A stretch of 5,005 bases of DNA from a virus (taxonomy: Duplodnaviria > Heunggongvirae > Uroviricota > Caudoviricetes): the IMG/VR virus record IMGVR_UViG_2698536450_000013; one strand, given 5' to 3'. The position numbers were made by a program, and so were the translations under genes. Shown piece after piece: positions 1 through 5,005 of the stretch (position 1 is its first letter; each line of letters starts with the position of its first letter). Under the pieces are notes generated by a model. It saw only the letters and a program-made list of their open reading frames with translations. It did no database searches and was not told the origin of the DNA.

Positions 1-103
1 CCAGCGACCAGCGACCAGCGACCAGCGACCAGCGACCAGCGACCAGCGACCAGCGACCAGCGACCAGCGACCAGCGACCAGCGACCAGCGACCAGCGACC
101 AGC
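1..103 (+). repeat. Perfect heptanucleotide tandem repeat (CCAGCGA)n, 14 full copies plus a 5-nt partial copy; tract continues past the 5' window edge
   Basis: Direct reading: ccagcga repeats without mismatch from 1 to 98, then ccagc (99-103). The unit is not a multiple of 3. All three + frames are open through the tract and encode the same heptapeptide in circular permutation (QRPATSD in frame 2). Confidence 0.95.
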
Positions 104-2155
104 AGTAAATCAAGAAAGTCTGTAAAATCTGTTGAGCCGGAAATTACCGAACTGGCGAACTCATGGCTTAAATCTTACAGGCTTGATTACAAGTTGCAGA
201 ATGCATCACTTAACGGAGAGATCGATAACGCACTGGACGCTTATTTTTCGAAAAATGGCGGCGCAGGCGGTAATCGTCCCGACGTAAAACTCCTTGTTAA
301 GGACAAATACGGCAAGCAGTATCCCGTTCTCATCGAGTATAAAGGCTACAAGGACAGGCTTATCAGACTTGGCAGCAACGGTATTATTGAGAACAAAGAT
401 GCCAGAAAAGAATGGAATTTTAAAAATATTAATGGATACGCGGTGAATGGCGCAGTCCATTATGCCAACGCACTTCTTCAGTTCACCAATTACCCTGATA
501 TTATTGCTATTGGTATGACCGGCTGGCGCGATGATGGTACAGGCGAACTGCATCATGAAATCGGCGTGTGGTACGTATCAAAGAATAATTTAGGAGCCGG
601 ACAGAAGGTTGGTGAATTCACCGACTTATCGTTCCTTGCTGATAAAAATGTTGATGGATTTCTCAACAAGATAAAGCTGCTTAATCTTCCTCCCGAAGAA
701 CTGGAAAAAATCAAGGCCAGCAAAGAGGAAGAGATAGACACGCGACTTTCCCGTCTGAATAACGATATTTACCAGAATGAAAAGGGGCTTGGTGAAAGTG
801 ATCGTGTTTACCTTGTTGTGGCTACCGTTATTGCAACGTTGGGGATTCCGGGAAAGTTAGCACCGCTGGATAAAAAAGAACTGACCTCTTCAACGGAGGA
901 GGACTTGCGTGATGGTGATATTATTTTCAGGAAAATAAGGAATTTTTTAAGGCTGAAAGCTGTTCCTGAAACAAAAAGAGAAATGATTTTGCGCTCGTTG
1001 CAAAATACGCTGTGGACTGAAAACATTAACAAACCAGTCAACGGTGAAAGCCAGTTAAAGCGCGTGTTTGTTAAAGTTGTTGATGATCTTGGGGAGTATT
1101 ACAAAATTGGACTGACCACCGATTTTACGGGCAAACTGTTTAATGAGATGTATCGCTGGCTTGGATTTACGCAGGACAAGCTCAATGACGTCGTTCTGAC
1201 ACCACCTTATGTTGCCACATTGCTGGCACGACTCGCCAGAGTAAACAAAGATTCCTATGTGTGGGATTTTGCTACAGGTTCTGCGGGATTGCTTGTGGCT
1301 GCAATGAATGAAATGCTCATTGACGCCAGAGAAAATATTCACTCACCGAACGAACTACAACTTAAGGAAGCGCAAATCAAGGCTGAACAGCTTCTTGGCC
1401 TTGAGGTGTTATCCAGTATTTATATGCTGGCCATCCTGAATATGATTTTGATGGGGGATGGTAGCTCGAATATCCTCAATAAAGACTCGCTGGCCGATTT
1501 TGACGGCAAGTATGGATTTGGGAAAACAGGAGAAAAATTCCCTGCGGACGCATTTATTCTCAATCCTCCGTATTCAGCTAAAGGTAACGGCATGATTTTC
1601 GTGCAGAAGGCGCTGTCGATGATGGATAAAGGCTATGCTGCAGTGATTATCCAGAGTTCAGCTGGCACAGGAAAGGCTACGGAGTACAACAAAAAAATAC
1701 TCAAGGAAAATACCTTGCTGGCAAGCATCAAAATGCCTGCGGATCTGTTTATTGGTAAATCAAGCGTTCAGACGTACATTTACGTTTTTCAGGTAAAAAT
1801 TCCGCATAACGCGAAACAGGCTGTTAAGTTTATCGACTTTTCCAATGACGGCTACGCTCGCTCTAATCGCAAAAAGGCAAGAAACAATCTTGTTGATGCC
1901 GATCGTGCAAAAGAGCGTTATCAGGAGGTTGTGGATCTGGTTCACTTCGGGAAAGGTTGCCTTAATATCTTTACGGAGGATGAATATTTTGAGGGAACAA
2001 TCGATCCTGATAGTGGTGAGGACTGGAATCAGACCAGGCCAGTAGATGCTAGGCCAACGCTGGAGGATTTCAAAAAGACGGTAGGTGATTACCTTGCATG
2101 GGAGGTCTCGCAATTACTGAAAAAACAAGGTGAAAACAATTTTGCGGGAAAGTAA
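2..2155 (+). CDS. 5'-partial CDS: gamma-class N6-adenine DNA methyltransferase with an N-terminal putative PD-(D/E)xK nuclease domain (Type IIG/IIB-like or Type I HsdM-like modification subunit)
   Basis: Frame 2 has no stop from the window start to TAA at 2153-2155. The ORF track starts at TTG 194 only because there is no ATG/GTG/TTG earlier; the upstream translation (SVEPEITELANSWLKSYRLDYKL) reads as ordinary protein and TTG 194 has no convincing Shine-Dalgarno. Motifs seen: LTPPYVATLLARLARV followed by VWDFATGSAGLLVAA (SAM-binding motif I, about nt 1258-1300), FILNPPYS (catalytic motif IV, about nt 1552-1575), and the post-NPPY region AAVIIQSSAG...LASIKMPADLFIGKSSVQTYIYVFQV typical of HsdM/MmeI-type enzymes. 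N-terminal RPD (D codon 281-283) ... IEYK (E 335-337, K 341-343) fits PD-x(n)-ExK. Confidence 0.8.
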   Translation, partial: QRPATSDQRPATSDQRPATSDQRPATSDQRPATSSKSRKSVKSVEPEITELANSWLKSYRLDYKLQNASLNGEIDNALDAYFSKNGGAGGNRPDVKLLVKDKYGKQYPVLIEYKGYKDRLIRLGSNGIIENKDARKEWNFKNINGYAVNGAVHYANALLQFTNYPDIIAIGMTGWRDDGTGELHHEIGVWYVSKNNLGAGQKVGEFTDLSFLADKNVDGFLNKIKLLNLPPEELEKIKASKEEEIDTRLSRLNNDIYQNEKGLGESDRVYLVVATVIATLGIPGKLAPLDKKELTSSTEEDLRDGDIIFRKIRNFLRLKAVPETKREMILRSLQNTLWTENINKPVNGESQLKRVFVKVVDDLGEYYKIGLTTDFTGKLFNEMYRWLGFTQDKLNDVVLTPPYVATLLARLARVNKDSYVWDFATGSAGLLVAAMNEMLIDARENIHSPNELQLKEAQIKAEQLLGLEVLSSIYMLAILNMILMGDGSSNILNKDSLADFDGKYGFGKTGEKFPADAFILNPPYSAKGNGMIFVQKALSMMDKGYAAVIIQSSAGTGKATEYNKKILKENTLLASIKMPADLFIGKSSVQTYIYVFQVKIPHNAKQAVKFIDFSNDGYARSNRKKARNNLVDADRAKERYQEVVDLVHFGKGCLNIFTEDEYFEGTIDPDSGEDWNQTRPVDARPTLEDFKKTVGDYLAWEVSQLLKKQGENNFAGK

Positions 2156-2195
2156 ATTCCCCGCTCAGCGATAAATTAAGAAGCGTTGAGTGGGG
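2146..2195 (+). promoter_or_regulatory. Candidate programmed -1 ribosomal frameshift cassette: slippery heptamer G_GGA_AAG (2146-2152), in-frame TAA (2153-2155), 6-nt spacer, 12-bp stem-loop (2159-2170 paired with 2184-2195, 13-nt loop)
   Basis: GGA and AAG are the last two sense codons of the upstream ORF. The -1 frame (GGG AAA GTA AAT...) is the frame of the downstream ORF, which is open from 2134. Stem CCCCGCUCAGCG pairs with CGUUGAGUGGGG (10 Watson-Crick plus 2 G-U); it may extend to 14 bp from 2157. Confidence 0.45.
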
Positions 2196-2214
2196 AGAGT
2201 TCAGGATTGGCGAT

Positions 2215-3309
2215 TTGTTCTATGTGAGCACAGGCTCGCTTATCTCCTCAGGAAGATTAAAACCAGGCAAAATCAAACGTGTTTCAGCAAAGAGCGATCA
2301 AAACGGTATCATCGGAGAGTTTGATACCGAGTTTATGGATGATGCAAGGCATTATGAAAATTTTATAAGCGTTAATTTTTTTGGAGATGCTTTTTATCAT
2401 CCTTATTGTGCCAGCGTAGAAATGAAGGTGCATGTTCTTACATTAAAATCAAGTAAGTCCGACTTTAATGCAAAGCGCGGACTGTATGTTGCCAGTATGA
2501 TTAATAAAGCTTTAAAGGGGCGTTTTAATTATGGTCAACAGTTATCGAGTTCCAAACTCAGAGATGGAGAATATTTCATCTCATTACCAGTGAAAAATAA
2601 TGAAATTGACTGGTTTTTTATGGATAATTATATAGAAGAGCTGGAAGCGGCCCATATAGAAGAGCTGGAAGCATACCTGATAGCTGCTGGGCTGAGTGAT
2701 TACCAACTAACGGAAAAAGATTATCTTATCCTGGAGCATTTTAAAAATATTGAATTTTCAGGCTTTCCTGTTACTGAGTTATTCTCAGTGTGCAATACAG
2801 GAAACATATTGTCTAGAGACATCATAGAAAATAGTGGGGATGTTCCTTATCTTTGTGCTAGCCGTGATAATAACTCTGTTAGTTCTTATATCGCCTATGA
2901 TGACTCACTCTTGGAAAAAGGGAACTGTATTTTTATTGGTGGTAAGACATTCGTTGTAACTTATCAGGAGCGAGACTTTTTTTCAAACGACAGTCATAAT
3001 TTGCGACTCTATGTTAACAATGAGGATGGAAGGACAAAGTTTGCTTATTTGGGCATTATTTCATGTATTTATAGGTCTATTTCACATAAATATTCATGGG
3101 GGGATAGTGTTAGTAATAGAAAAATTAAGAACGATGTTATTTGGTTGCCAGTGAAAAATAAGTCACCTGACTTTTGTTATATAAATGACCTTATTTCAGT
3201 TGTTCATAAGCTTGTCATTAAAGATGTTGTCCAGTACGCAGAACGCAAAATGAACGCATACAGGCAAGCTATAACAAGTCGCGGTTATGATGATTCTGGT
3301 GTCAGTTAA
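2215..3309 (+). CDS. Restriction-modification specificity (S / HsdS-like, BcgI-B-like) protein with two target-recognition domains; true N-terminus probably upstream of 2215 (frame open from 2134)
   Basis: ORF-track ORF of 364 aa ending at TAA 3307-3309. No ATG or GTG start and no Shine-Dalgarno; the listed start is TTG. The upstream in-frame translation VNSPLSDKLRSVEWGEFRIGDLFYVSTGSL looks like the start of a target-recognition domain. A second domain begins similarly (FSGFPVTELFSVCNTGNIL, about nt 2760). A repeated central region (IEELEAAH IEELEAYL) lies between them. The gene is visibly more AT-rich than the tRNA/TerB region. Confidence 0.7.
   Translation: MFYVSTGSLISSGRLKPGKIKRVSAKSDQNGIIGEFDTEFMDDARHYENFISVNFFGDAFYHPYCASVEMKVHVLTLKSSKSDFNAKRGLYVASMINKALKGRFNYGQQLSSSKLRDGEYFISLPVKNNEIDWFFMDNYIEELEAAHIEELEAYLIAAGLSDYQLTEKDYLILEHFKNIEFSGFPVTELFSVCNTGNILSRDIIENSGDVPYLCASRDNNSVSSYIAYDDSLLEKGNCIFIGGKTFVVTYQERDFFSNDSHNLRLYVNNEDGRTKFAYLGIISCIYRSISHKYSWGDSVSNRKIKNDVIWLPVKNKSPDFCYINDLISVVHKLVIKDVVQYAERKMNAYRQAITSRGYDDSGVS
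2630..2672 (+). repeat. Tandem duplication of a 24-bp (8-codon) unit inside the S-subunit central region: two perfect 19-bp copies of ATATAGAAGAGCTGGAAGC at 2630-2648 and 2654-2672
   Basis: Direct reading; the period is 24 bp, so it is in frame, encoding IEELEAAH / IEELEAYL between the two target-recognition domains. Confidence 0.9.
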
Positions 3310-3398: not shown

Positions 3399-3573
3399 GT
3401 ATCCGGAATTCTGTGGGTTACCCTGCCCCCCTTAGAAAGGTGCGACAGCAATTAATAACAAAATCTTAAAAATCGCATATGGCACTATTAGTTTTCTAAA
3501 TATTGTATATTTTAAGTATTGCAGGATAACCCTGTAACGAAGTTTGCGTAACAGCATTTTGCTCTACGAGTTT

Positions 3574-3602
3574 GCCAGCCTCCCCCAGTGGCTGGCTTTT
3601 TT
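3574..3602 (+). terminator. Putative rho-independent terminator
   Basis: 7-bp stem GCCAGCC (3574-3580) / GGCTGGC (3590-3596) with a 9-nt loop, followed by TTTTTTAT. Confidence 0.6.
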
Positions 3603-3604
3603 AT

Positions 3605-3724
3605 GTCCGTAGCGTCAAAGCAGCAATGGCGCTGGGGCGTCGTGCAATTGGCGTTGAGCTGGAGAGCGGGCGTTTTGAGCAGACGGTCAGGGAAGTTCAG
3701 AATGTAGTCAGTCAGAACGGATGA
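3605..3724 (+). pseudogene. 3'-terminal remnant of a beta-class (CcrM/Dam-like phage) DNA methyltransferase gene; N-terminal and catalytic parts absent
   Basis: Frame 2 translation ending at TGA 3722-3724 reads ...AAMALGRRAIGVELESGRFEQTVREVQNVVSQNG*. This resembles the segment that follows the C-terminal SAM-binding motif in beta-class amino-methyltransferases (pattern LGR-x-[FA]-IG-[IV]-E). The expected DPFxGSGTT motif is missing upstream, where the sequence is non-coding-like and contains the terminator. Confidence 0.45.
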
Positions 3725-3764: not shown

Positions 3765-3840
3765 GGCCCTTTAGCTCAGTGGTGAGAGCGAGCGACTCAT
3801 AATCGCCAGGTCGCTGGTTCAAATCCAGCAAGGGCCACCA
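3765..3840 (+). tRNA. tRNA with anticodon CAU, resembling enterobacterial tRNA-Ile2 (lysidine, AUA-decoding) more than initiator or elongator tRNA-Met
   Basis: Hand-folded cloverleaf: acceptor GGCCCTT/AAGGGCC, D-stem GCTC/GAGC, anticodon loop CTCATAA, T-stem GCTGG/CCAGC, T-loop TTCAAAT, encoded CCA at 3838-3840. Confidence 0.88.
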
Positions 3841-3847
3841 TCACATA

Positions 3848-3924
3848 CCGCCATTAGCTCATCGGGATAGAGCGTCAGCCTTCGAAGCTGGTTGCGCGGG
3901 GTTCGAGTCCTCGATGGCGGTCCA
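3848..3924 (+). tRNA. tRNA-Arg, anticodon read as UCG (CGA/CGG-decoding)
   Basis: Hand-folded: acceptor CCGCCAT/ATGGCGG, D-stem GCTC/GAGC, anticodon stem TCAGC/GCTGG, loop CTTCGAA (U33, anticodon TCG at 3882-3884, A37), T-stem CGGGG/CCTCG, T-loop TTCGAGT, discriminator T, encoded CCA. Confidence 0.82.
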
Positions 3925-3937
3925 TTATCTGCACACT

Positions 3938-4014
3938 GTGTTGTTAGCTCAGCCGGACAGAGCAATTGCCTTCTAAGCAATCGGTCAGTGGTTAGACTCC
4001 ACTACAACGCGCCA
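3938..4014 (+). tRNA. tRNA-Arg, anticodon UCU (AGA-decoding, rare codon)
   Basis: Hand-folded: acceptor GTGTTGT/ACAACGC (one G-U), D-stem GCTC/GAGC, anticodon stem ATTGC/GCAAT, loop CTTCTAA (anticodon TCT at 3972-3974), T-stem AGTGG/CCACT, T-loop TTAGACT, discriminator G, encoded CCA. Confidence 0.85.
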
Positions 4015-4051: not shown

Positions 4052-4183
4052 GTATCTGCGCCACGCCCGGCGCATATCAACCACAGAGCCTTTCGGGGGT
4101 GAGCTTACGGAGTGGTCAGTGTGACTTTCTCTGTGGGCAGATCGCTCCCGGGCGTTGGCTCACCCACCCAAAGGAACGTCACG

Positions 4184-4615
4184 ATGTTTGGTATTTTTGG
4201 TAAAAAAGCCCGCCGAGCGGCAGTGGAAATTAAAAAGTTTGAGAAACGTGATCTGGCACAGGCGGTTATTAATGCTGCCTATCTGGTGGCCTATGCAGAT
4301 GGTGAATGTGAGGCTTCAGAGAAAGCGAAGATCGAGCAGGTCTTGCGTAACCAGCCTGCGTTGTCCGCGTTTACGTCAGAAATTAATGCGATTAGCGCAA
4401 CCATTATCGGTCAGCTGGATACCAATTTTAAAATTGGTCGTCGTGCCGCGTTACGCGAGATTGAGGATGTGAAACACGATACGCGTGAAGCGGAAGACGT
4501 GCTGGATGTGGCGGTGGCCATTGCCGAAGCAGACGGCGAAATAGAGCCGGAAGAGCGCAAGGTGCTGGAAGAGATTGCCGGTGTTCTGGGCCTTCGTCTG
4601 GAGAATCATCTGTGA
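4184..4615 (+). CDS. TerB-like (tellurite-resistance TerB family) domain protein, 143 aa
   Basis: ATG at 4184 is preceded by AAGGA (4171-4175) at 8-nt spacing; stop TGA 4613-4615. Two acidic ADG motifs typical of the TerB fold: VAYADGECEASEKAKI and IAEADGEIEPEERKVL. The ORF-track start at GTG 4112 adds 24 residues with no ribosome-binding site. Confidence 0.7.
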   Translation: MFGIFGKKARRAAVEIKKFEKRDLAQAVINAAYLVAYADGECEASEKAKIEQVLRNQPALSAFTSEINAISATIIGQLDTNFKIGRRAALREIEDVKHDTREAEDVLDVAVAIAEADGEIEPEERKVLEEIAGVLGLRLENHL

Positions 4616-4623
4616 CGGTAAAA

Positions 4624-4776
4624 ATGCGTCTGGCTGTGGTTGCGCTCCTGCTGTTTCTGGTGGTGATGGTGGACTTCAGCAGTCGGATAATGTCAGTGCT
4701 GGCTGACGGTGTGCTGGTGGCGGGTGTGGTGGTTGTTGCTTTCCCGTTGCTGAAAAAGAAAGCATCAGGCGATTAG
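4624..4776 (+). CDS. Small hydrophobic protein (50 aa, probably a single- or double-pass membrane peptide), possibly co-transcribed with the TerB-like gene
   Basis: ATG 4624 to TAG 4774-4776 encodes MRLAVVALLLFLVVMVDFSSRIMSVLADGVLVAGVVVVAFPLLKKKASGD: two hydrophobic stretches and a basic C-terminus. It starts 9 nt after the TerB stop; an in-frame GTG at 4612-4614 overlaps that stop. No strong Shine-Dalgarno, and it is below the ORF-track length cutoff. Confidence 0.35.
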   Translation: MRLAVVALLLFLVVMVDFSSRIMSVLADGVLVAGVVVVAFPLLKKKASGD

Positions 4777-5005
4777 CAGGGTATCAGTTACCCGTTGAAA
4801 TTTTTAAATACCTCACAATTCAGGCGGTTGACTGTTGTCTGGTTTGCGGGGAGTTTGTTAAAAGAAACTGGCATGGTGAATCCCCCTGTGCGGAGGGGCA
4901 ATCAGCAACCAGGTATATGTGATAATCGCGGATTCAGGTGCTGATACTGAATTCACCGGGAGGCACCCGGCACCATGCTTTGCCACAAAAGTGTTGTTTC
5001 TGTTT

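Follow-up and report, generated by a model that had tools for sequence, protein, structure and literature searches.

The window, a 5,005-nucleotide stretch of a Caudoviricetes record (IMGVR_UViG_2698536450_000013), carries a gene pair that encodes a combined nuclease and methylase chain (RM, ORF1) and a specificity part (S, ORF2). The host element of this pair is an E. coli lambdoid (Stx-type) prophage, in which Q/hok lies on one side and a tRNA trio on the other. The features of the locus are as follows.

1..103, plus strand: 3′ end of a perfect (CCAGCGA)14.7 tract (TRF period 7, 100% matches), cut by the window edge
2..2155, plus strand: RM polypeptide ORF, open at the 5′ edge of the window, with the stop TAA at 2153-2155
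194-2155, plus strand: ORF1 as annotated (TTG start, 653 aa)
275..343, plus strand: nuclease motif RPD...IEYK (RPD 275-283, IEYK 332-343; D 281-283, E 335-337, K 341-343)
1265..1288, plus strand: methyltransferase motif I, DFATGSAG, the SAM-binding site (invariant; Pfam N6_Mtase)
1562..1573, plus strand: methyltransferase motif IV, NPPY, the catalytic motif (invariant)
2146..2152, plus strand: candidate -1 slippery heptamer G_GGA_AAG, read in the RM frame, with the RM stop TAA immediately after it
2152..3309, plus strand: S reading frame, -1 relative to RM (TRD1, central helix with repeats, TRD2, C-terminal helix)
2158..2196, plus strand: candidate frameshift-stimulator hairpin of 13 bp (arms 2158-2170 and 2184-2196), beginning 5 nt after the heptamer
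2215-3309, plus strand: ORF2 as annotated (TTG start, 364 aa)
2632..2683, plus strand: 24-nt tandem repeat, 2.2 copies (TRF), in the central conserved helix of S (IEELEAAH-IEELEAY)

The RM polypeptide is composed of an N-terminal PD-(D/E)xK nuclease, a helical connector and a gamma-class N6-adenine methyltransferase. The positions originally given for RPD, IEYK, motif I and NPPY hold on rechecking, and the methyltransferase motifs, whose possible degeneracy had been raised as an objection, are intact. D60, E78, K80, DFATGSA and NPPY are all invariant in 48 homologues (~72% identity); thus, the nuclease and methylase motifs are not chance matches. Pfam N6_Mtase matches ORF1 at 4.3e-21, and the match to the VRR_NUC nuclease family is weak (E 0.0033, residues 5-57 of ORF1). 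In the AF2 model, itself weak (pLDDT 61.5), the strand-strand layout at the nuclease motif fits a PD-(D/E)xK fold. Judged from the invariant catalytic residues, the N-terminus of ORF1 is a PD-(D/E)xK-type domain, and the non-catalytic HsdM N-domain that had been considered for it is not borne out. The PADLOC model for Type IIG RM proteins (PDLC03616, REase_MTase_IIG) matches ORF1 end to end (3.4e-232), which supports a BcgI-like reading; PDLC03602, a model of BcgIA-like length, matches at 1.4e-44, and PHROG matches also support this identity. With the invariant nuclease and the intact methylase, we are highly confident that the pair is a BcgI-like restriction-modification enzyme, as the original prediction of a Type IIB/IIG system had proposed. 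The open reading frames at 194-2155 and 2215-3309 also stand as it listed them, but both TTG starts are wrong. For RM, the REase_MTase_IIG match begins 5′ of TTG194, and non-E. coli homologues begin just ahead of a conserved segment, S[IV]EPxI..L.N.WLKSY, that lies upstream of TTG194; the annotated TTG194 is evidently not the true RM start. Neither the 5′ repeat tract nor the candidate frameshift junction between RM and S had been noticed in that earlier reading.

By its profile matches, ORF2 is an HsdS-like protein with two target-recognition domains, which agrees with the earlier description. Pfam Methylase_S is found in two stretches of ORF2, and the PADLOC Type II specificity-subunit model (PDLC03591, Specificity_II) matches it at 9e-21. 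Up to 2133 the -1 frame is closed; from there it runs open to 3309. TRD1 begins at ~2185, upstream of TTG2215, which falls inside the domain. When S is read from 2152, the Methylase_S match reaches profile position 2 of 168 with 86.7 bits; read from TTG2215, it covers the profile only from position 24 of 168, with 71.4 bits. TRD1 is therefore complete only if read from the shift site, since a start at TTG2215 drops the first 22 profile positions. The S frame of the window contains no ATG, GTG or TTG from 2152 up to TTG2215, and this annotated codon is, on the evidence of the domain boundary, not the true S start. The central region, previously described as repeated, holds a real tandem repeat (24 nt × 2.2, 2632-2683). 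The copy number of the IEELEAAH unit varies among E. coli alleles from 1 to 3 full units, and comparable central repeats vary in Neisseria and other homologues. Such variable S repeats recall the TAEL repeats in the S central helix of EcoR124I/II, where the unit has 4 residues as against 8 here. The 8-residue repeats in the S central helix probably determine how long the spacer in the target site is.

To describe the RM/S junction, 74 homologues were aligned. G_GGA_AAR is present at the junction in all 74, and the layout of heptamer, stop and hairpin is likewise kept in 74 of 74, across many phyla. The heptamer's first G falls in the third position of codons that specify six different amino acids, and the glycine is always encoded by GGA; protein constraint can account for neither of these two features. 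The hairpin has a calculated energy of -23.3 kcal/mol (RNAfold, z = -5.9), and its pairing is maintained in 98.6% of cells in the 74 homologues, compared with 35-51% when the partner is slid. Covariation is seen at pair 33-55, with UA 35, CG 20, UG 16 and C-A 0. Part of the junction conservation could be protein constraint, since the hairpin arms also encode the conserved PLN...VEWGE. In nearly all of 80 loci, S lies in the -1 frame, which is free of stops from the heptamer onwards. No start codon at all precedes V[EK]WGE in 46 of the 74 homologues, and in 26 of these, the window included, the codon overlapping the stop is GTA, which cannot initiate. In the other 28, the stretch from the heptamer to V[EK]WGE does contain an ATG, GTG or TTG, in six cases as an ATGA overlap; possible S starts, present in about a third of homologues, are an ATGA overlap or an ATG/TTG 9-10 codons past the heptamer. 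Four different heptamers of the X_XXY_YYZ form occupy the one junction position: G_GGA_AAG, A_AAA_AAG, A_AAA_AAA and C_CCA_AAG. Those other than G_GGA_AAG, each with its own hairpin, occur in an E. coli sister allele (A_AAA_AAG), in H. pylori and in phage relatives of 28% identity. That G_GGA_AAG, known from phage lambda G/GT, is prone to shifting has been proven in E. coli, and S is likely to be reached by a programmed -1 ribosomal frameshift at this junction.

At the 5′ end, the tract translates as (PATSDQR)n in the RM reading frame, which is open throughout. In full loci, (CCAGCGA)n stands between an ATG that has AAGGA as its ribosome-binding site and the conserved N-terminus, and the proteins of the E. 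coli sister allele begin MLPDQRPATS(DQRPATS)n. The tract is restricted to enterobacterial prophage copies. E. coli loci contain between 8 and about 100 units, with all three phases represented, a pattern that points to an ON/OFF switch; the 14 loci examined have perfect tracts of 8-98 units. Sister strains are unequal in unit number, with 55, 57 and 82 units in O111:H8 and 82, 91 and 98 units in G6/7, G1/2 and G8, respectively; of these last strains, G8 is in frame and its sisters are out of frame. Repeat-driven ON/OFF switching of the RM gene is, on this pattern of length variation, likely. Against it, tracts of ~100 units would put more than 200 disordered residues on the nuclease N-terminus, which the enzyme may not tolerate.

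Three other explanations of the locus were weighed. According to one, the gene is a decaying or silent prophage passenger whose tract drifts neutrally and mostly out of frame, so that most carriers would have no active enzyme. The even spread over three phases also fits such drift, the ATG with the good ribosome-binding site is in frame in only 3 of the 14 loci, in 6 of 14 no upstream start at all shares the RM frame, and no convincing promoter was found immediately 5′ of the ATG. In some prophage copies, S is truncated or IS1 has inserted. Both frames, RM and S, are nevertheless intact, with all catalytic residues kept, in the window and most copies; the tracts are perfect, where decaying repeats would gather interruptions, and in-frame variants are present in two alleles. 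The family extends over Firmicutes, Bacteroidota, Proteobacteria, Campylobacterota, Spirochaetes and candidate phyla, and with ~70% identity across phyla it is evidently under strong purifying selection. A silent passenger is thus improbable. Far less credible still is a classical Type I system with its hsdR elsewhere, in which ORF1 would be an HsdM with a non-catalytic N-domain. ORF1 is named 'HsdM family' by NCBI, and the top Foldseek matches of RM are HsdM proteins (BsaXI RM, 8w0p_A, is matched at E 8.5e-6 over 623 columns); however, the match to the hsdM equivalog TIGR00497, weak and partial, scores 36 bits against a cut-off of 243, the full-length match goes to the Type IIG model, and the N-terminal 180 residues contain the invariant PD...ExK. 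The window had been noted to contain no HsdR-like helicase gene, and this extends to the matching E. coli genome, where neither a helicase nor an hsdR gene is seen for 12 kb to either side; 5′ of the pair, where an hsdR gene had been allowed for, lie the repeat tract, hok and the phage Q gene instead. Beside homologues, no hsdR was found within 6 kb in Neisseria, 8 kb in a second E. coli prophage and 3 kb in H. pylori. An ATP-dependent HsdR/translocase partner is accordingly absent from all four genomic contexts (two in E. coli, one each in Neisseria and H. pylori).

The remaining alternative, an ordinary two-subunit BcgI-type enzyme, concerns the junction. In it, RM ends at the TAA, and S is translated separately from TTG2215 or by re-initiation at the junction; the GGGAAAR-stop-hairpin arrangement would then serve coupling, stability or attenuation, or would follow from protein conservation as a side effect. 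The A and B chains of BcgI are physically separate, 28 of the 74 homologues have a possible start, and more distant relatives (L124, L128-129, L133-138) have plain overlapping ATG starts. In addition, TTG2215 has an AGGA about 9 nt ahead of it, and a shortened S could be translated from there on its own. This explanation is at odds with the 46 start-less homologues, 26 of which have GTA over the stop, and a start at TTG2215 costs S the beginning of TRD1. It also does not account for the first G and the GGA of the heptamer, which are kept beyond protein constraint, or for four different X_XXY_YYZ heptamers sharing one position. We regard it as unlikely, though less so than the other two.

The explanation that we prefer, and consider probable as a whole, joins a BcgI-like RM, a repeat switch and a frameshifted RM-S product. 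The RM chain, a PD-(D/E)xK nuclease with an N6-adenine methylase, would work with the HsdS-like part, whose two recognition domains would read a bipartite site, and an ATP motor subunit would not be involved. We infer that translation begins at the ATG upstream of the window and passes through (CCAGCGA)n, where slipped-strand changes in n would shift the frame and turn the enzyme ON or OFF (phase variation). At G_GGA_AAG, some ribosomes would slip to the -1 frame and continue into S, and one mRNA would thereby yield free RM and an RM-S fusion. One RM and one RM-S would give the (RM)2S make-up, as in BcgI and BsaXI, and surplus free RM could provide the additional nuclease domains that BcgI requires for cutting. 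With somewhat more reserve, we lean towards a broader proposal: that a widespread BcgI-like family makes its recognition module only as a frameshifted C-terminal extension of RM, and that a set ratio of RM to RM-S builds (RM)2S. No earlier report of frameshifting in such enzymes was found in the literature searched.

To place this arrangement, we compared the pair with known systems. BcgI is an A2B enzyme activated by excess A, and its B subunit is a free polypeptide. The pair shares with BcgI and HpyUM032XIII the nuclease and gamma-methylase in one chain, the HsdS-like part with two TRDs, the lack of a motor subunit and the two-ORF layout. Unlike the free B subunit of BcgI, S here has no start codon and is apparently reached by frameshift. 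HpyUM032XIII of H. pylori, characterized as BcgI-like, methylates CYAN7TRG/TTC-type bipartite sites. The H. pylori homologue of the pair is 60% identical and presumably belongs with HpyUM032XIII. Regarding the single-chain Type IIB enzymes (AloI, CjeI, PpiI, TstI), their R-M-S domain order matches the proposed fusion; BsaXI, an (RM)2S complex by cryo-EM, has an RM that aligns structurally with the RM here over more than 600 columns. HMMER similarity to the single-chain enzymes and BsaXI is too low to detect, and the 'knob' and 'paddle' domains carried by AloI-type enzymes and BsaXI are not apparent here in the sequence or the model. AloI, CjeI, PpiI, TstI and BsaXI are always fused or always separate, whereas both forms are proposed here. 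Where the original prediction contrasted a BcgI-type separate S with an AloI-type single chain, the junction suggests both forms from one mRNA. Type I M2S methylases such as EcoKI have a similar HsdM-like methylase fold and HsdS-like S architecture; in contrast, the locus here lacks HsdR and has its nuclease joined to M in one chain. For EcoKI, an engineered fusion of M to S has been reported (PMC3510504).

The two regulatory elements also have counterparts. The heptamer is identical to that of phage lambda G/GT, and that of the sister allele, A_AAA_AAG, is the heptamer of E. coli dnaX, where a hairpin lies 5-8 nt downstream, as here. In lambda G/GT, dnaX and RM/S alike, two products of one gene are thought to cooperate; here, unlike in the other two, the gene is a restriction enzyme and the 0-frame stop follows directly after the heptamer. 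The repeat unit is identical to that of the STEC Type III mod gene M.Eco131I, in which CAGCGAC[n] at the 5′ end of the ORF varies in length within populations, as seen by fragment analysis; the gene here differs in class (Type IIB RM) and in its leader sequence, and the M.Eco131I mod primers are absent from all RM/S loci retrieved. The gene neuO, also carried by an E. coli prophage, is likewise switched by a heptanucleotide repeat at its 5′ end. The tracts here, up to about 100 units, are much longer than those of M.Eco131I and neuO.

If the frameshift is true, recoding would be described here for the first time in a restriction-modification system, and restriction enzymes would join dnaX, phage tail chaperones and IS transposases in using recoding for subunit ratios. 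The frameshift would also form a bridge between the two Type IIB layouts, the one with S separate and the one with RMS fused. Many S genes that databases list as 'partial' or 'start-less' would then be mis-annotated, which would explain why annotation pipelines flag such genes as partial or as pseudogenes; as a lead only, frameshifting may explain incomplete-looking models of some Type IIB S subunits. To clone such enzymes for biotechnology, one would have to keep the native junction or fuse the two parts on purpose. In Stx-type prophages, the RM gene would additionally have acquired a heptanucleotide ON/OFF switch, and with it a variable module for defence and epigenetic marking would sit directly between Q, the regulator of the late genes, and the stx or tRNA region. 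This feature could influence phage exchange and methylation patterns in STEC.

The original prediction assigned the gene pair to a BcgI-like Type IIB/IIG restriction–modification enzyme, and both open reading frames and all four sequence motifs were confirmed at the positions proposed. ORF1 (RM, the nuclease–methylase) matches the PADLOC Type IIG model PDLC03616 end to end (3.4e-232) in the profile search suggested as a check, and a second PADLOC model of 637 positions at 1e-44. Across 48 homologues of ~72% identity, D60, E78 and K80 of the candidate PD...ExK motif (RPD...IEYK) are invariant; DFATGSA and NPPY are equally invariant, so the methyltransferase motifs are not degenerate. Pfam places N6_Mtase (4e-21) and, weakly on the N-terminus, the VRR_NUC nuclease on ORF1. 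ORF2 (S, the HsdS-like specificity frame) matches Methylase_S in two stretches, as expected for its two target-recognition domains (TRD1 and TRD2), and the PADLOC Type II specificity model at 9e-21. We rule out a classical Type I system: ORF1 scores 36 bits against the NCBI hsdM equivalog (cut-off 243), the PD...ExK motif is invariant, and the surroundings of the pair in E. coli, Neisseria and H. pylori contain neither hsdR nor a helicase gene, in agreement with the HsdR-like gene said to be lacking here. With these profile matches, invariant motifs and no hsdR nearby, the interpretation therefore survives its own refutation tests. An AlphaFold (AF2) model of RM, built from a shallow alignment, shows a helix–strand–strand layout around the nuclease motif, and its PDB structure matches are HsdM proteins and then the BsaXI Type IIB RM chain over >600 columns; since the model is weak (pLDDT 61.5), these fold matches give coarse support. 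PDB sequence searches with the single protein and with a 10-sequence profile returned no match. The enzyme class is already known, and PADLOC already models the RM family. At least 573 species-representative genomes contain an RM homologue, and the protein is ~70% identical across very distant phyla, including candidate phyla (fetched loci L018–L097). Such conservation is unusually high for a restriction enzyme and, on sequence comparison, implies extensive recent horizontal transfer.

E. coli chromosomes match the window at 97–99.9% identity. The host element in strain Z1323HEC0393 is a lambdoid prophage with the order nin genes, antiterminator Q, Hok/Gef toxin gene, RM/S pair, methylase remnant, three tRNAs, TerB, DUF3927, SASA-family esterase and lysis genes. 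In other strains, the same cassette lies immediately 5' of stx2b or stx1c, either of which is directly 3' of the tRNA trio. The G+C content is 35–44% in the RM/S pair versus ~52% in the flanks, and this AT-richness fits the expectation for acquired cargo. The features beside the pair are as follows.

1-103: (CCAGCGA)14.7 tract, a perfect 7-nt repeat; the window begins inside it
3572-3724 (PGAP: 3610-3723): remnant of a phage site-specific DNA methylase, C-terminal 37-50 codons without the N-terminus; weak Pfam N6_N4_Mtase match
3765-4014: three tRNA genes, by ARAGORN Met(CAT), Arg(TCG) and Arg(TCT); the first is annotated as tRNA-Ile by PGAP
4112-4776: TerB-family gene (Pfam 1e-15; PHROG 'tellurite resistance' moron) and DUF3927 ORF, the latter with a 15-nt tandem repeat at 4696-4733
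4842-5005: gammaproteobacterial sRNA STnc100 (Rfam, 106 bits, E 4e-23); the window end cuts the match

Stx-type phages normally have the methylase gene 5' of the tRNAs, and the RM cassette appears to have taken the place of most of it. In all E. coli copies, the Hok/Gef toxin gene is immediately 5' of the repeat tract (L001 11142–11297; L005 7672–7827), and the hok–repeat–RM–S block occupies two prophage positions, 3' of Q (L001) and in the nin region, 5' of Q (L005), which suggests a mobile cassette. A promoter scan found nothing adjoining the ATG upstream of the tract, the sole candidate being the phage late promoter after Q. The strong sigma-70-like site there (TTGAAA-16-TAGAAT; L001 10939–10966) overlaps the Q end and presumably represents pR', the late promoter, in which case the RM cassette would be part of the Q-dependent late transcript. 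Damaged copies, with S truncation or IS1, occur at L017 6803–8001, L123 and L141 7925–8622: the Stx2b prophage of strain 04-00955 and L123 have an S frame cut off at ~200 residues, and strain 2015C-3121 carries an IS1 between RM and S. Among E. coli, the 24-nt repeat of the S central helix is present in differing copy numbers, and similar repeats vary in Neisseria and other lineages; this recalls the spacer-length repeats carried by EcoR124I/II. Some E. coli S alleles (L104, L106, L108) have a second in-frame tandem repeat, GLADSRTR x2–3, directly after the IEELEA repeats.

The Type IIB/IIG reading of the pair stood; its annotated starts, TTG194 and TTG2215, did not, as conserved sequence begins upstream of both. 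The ORF1 frame is open through the tract as far as window position 2. TTG194 was rejected as the RM start, since it would lose ~30 invariant residues. The conserved segment S[IV]EPxI..L.N.WLKSY, a few residues before which the Neisseria, Providencia and Methylophilaceae homologues begin, is encoded 5' of TTG194, and the PADLOC match also begins there. An E. coli allele of 87% identity encodes proteins that begin MLPDQRPATS(DQRPATS)n, with n variable, and in the full locus an ATG whose ribosome-binding site, AAGGA, is 7 nt upstream lies 5' of the tract. In 14 loci, complete or on long contigs, the tract has 8, 16, 30, 49, 53, 55, 57, 63, 64, 82, 82, 88, 91 and 98 units and is perfect in 13; it is in frame with the AAGGA-preceded ATG in three, in frame with a poorer upstream ATG/GTG in five, and out of frame with every start in six. 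Unit numbers differ between close relatives (55, 57 and 82 in O111:H8 strains; 82, 91 and 98 in strains G6/7, G1/2 and G8, respectively), and IMG/VR copies add further sizes of up to ~101 units. G8 and DETEC-S792 (53 units) are in frame, G6/7 and G1/2 out of frame. None of 80 homologous loci from other phyla has such a tract. Judged by its anatomy, ATG–tract–RM is a predicted simple-sequence-repeat contingency gene; mismatch repair is expected to miss seven-base loops. The STEC Type III mod gene M.Eco131I is phase-variable through CAGCGAC[n], a unit identical to that of the RM tract, and its tract length varies within cultures; neuO offers a further precedent, as a prophage gene switched by a 5' heptanucleotide repeat. 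Literature searches covering 12 of the 14 rotations of the repeat unit, and the peptide repeat, gave these two precedents only and no report of the tract on this RM gene, and the primers of the STEC Type III mod gene matched none of the fetched loci and nothing in IMG/VR. The repeat switch on RM is a new example of an already known switch type. PGAP annotates the reverse strand of the tract as a 'hypothetical' or 'YXWGXW repeat-containing' protein (L001 11454–12113, minus; same place in other genomes); because the tract lacks stop codons in all frames of both strands, this looks like an annotation artefact.

At the RM/S junction, the S frame is −1 relative to RM; a stop closes it until 2133, after which it runs open to 3309, and it contains no ATG, GTG, TTG, CTG, ATT, ATC or ATA 5' of TTG2215. 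As the S start, TTG2215 was rejected because TRD1 would be cut short: reading S from 2152 gives a Pfam Methylase_S match from profile position 2 (of 168) with 86.7 bits, and reading it from TTG2215 gives one from position 24 with 71.4 bits. The Neisseria S start MLESVEWDNF aligns with KLRSVEWGEF of the window, also 5' of TTG2215. Thus, TRD1 is encoded where initiation codons are absent. ORF1 ends GCG GGA AAG TAA, that is, with a candidate −1 slippery heptamer G_GGA_AAG in the 0 frame (2146–2152) and a stop at once (2153–2155), and a 13-bp hairpin lies 5 nt 3' of the heptamer (−23.3 kcal/mol, z = −5.9, RNAfold). Rfam has no family at this junction.

We compared the junction in 80 homologous loci from species-representative genomes (~70% protein identity; Firmicutes, Bacteroidota, Proteobacteria, Campylobacterota, Spirochaetes and candidate phyla). 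In nearly all, S is in the −1 frame, which opens at the heptamer or slightly 5', most commonly two codons before. In an ungapped alignment of 74 junctions, GGGAAAR is invariant (74/74); its first G ends a CTG, TTG, TCG, CCG, GAG, GCG or CAG codon, for six different amino acids, and the Gly codon is always GGA. The following stop is TAG in 50, TAA in 18 and TGA in 6, and in 46 of the 74 no start codon precedes V[EK]WGE. Hairpin cells are paired in 98.6% versus 35–51% with the partner columns slid, and one pair covaries (U-A 35, C-G 20, U-G 16, C-A 0; Fisher's test 5e-8, phylogeny ignored). Other relatives carry different elements at the same place. In the E. coli sister allele, one sense codon separates A_AAA_AAG from TAA, and the hairpin, CTCCCGTT/AACGGGAG, is unrelated. 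Phage relatives of only 28% identity combine A_AAA_AAA with TAG and the hairpin CCCACTCTACC/GGTAGAGTGGG, and in H. pylori a gene of 60% identity carries C_CCA_AAG, then TGA, and a hairpin of its own. Some more distant relatives use plain overlapping ATG starts without a heptamer. We give these differing heptamer and hairpin solutions the most weight as sequence evidence for a frameshift. The phage lambda G/GT shift site is the same G_GGA_AAG, and both this heptamer and C_CCA_AAG are listed as highly shift-prone in E. coli.

S could possibly be translated independently, from TTG2215 or through re-initiation, and an AGGA precedes TTG2215 and some candidate start is present in about one-third of homologues. 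However, this would leave unexplained the nucleotide-level invariance of the heptamer, the four alternative heptamers and the truncated TRD1, as well as GTA as the overlap codon; re-initiation at the stop-overlapping codon was rejected because 26 of 74 homologues have GTA there. Transcriptional slippage was rejected too, as the majority of members have A3–A4 runs at most. It is also improbable that the locus is a silent passenger with a drifting tract: the even distribution over phases and the occasional truncated or IS-disrupted copies would fit, but the RM and S frames are intact and the tracts perfect.

A programmed −1 frameshift, which would yield an RM–S fusion, is the best explanation of the junction. 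The literature searched, which left most subscription journals and REBASE notes outside its scope, contained no frameshifting in restriction systems, and a 2016 recoding review has no entry for restriction enzymes; as far as this literature shows, a −1 frameshift in a restriction–modification system is undescribed. An engineered M–S fusion of EcoKI has been reported (PMC3510504). BsaXI has the composition (RM)2S, and BcgI is an A2B protomer in which surplus free A stimulates cutting. One RM–S fusion together with one free RM would give a BcgI/BsaXI-like composition, and the shift, if it were a minority event, would leave free RM in surplus.
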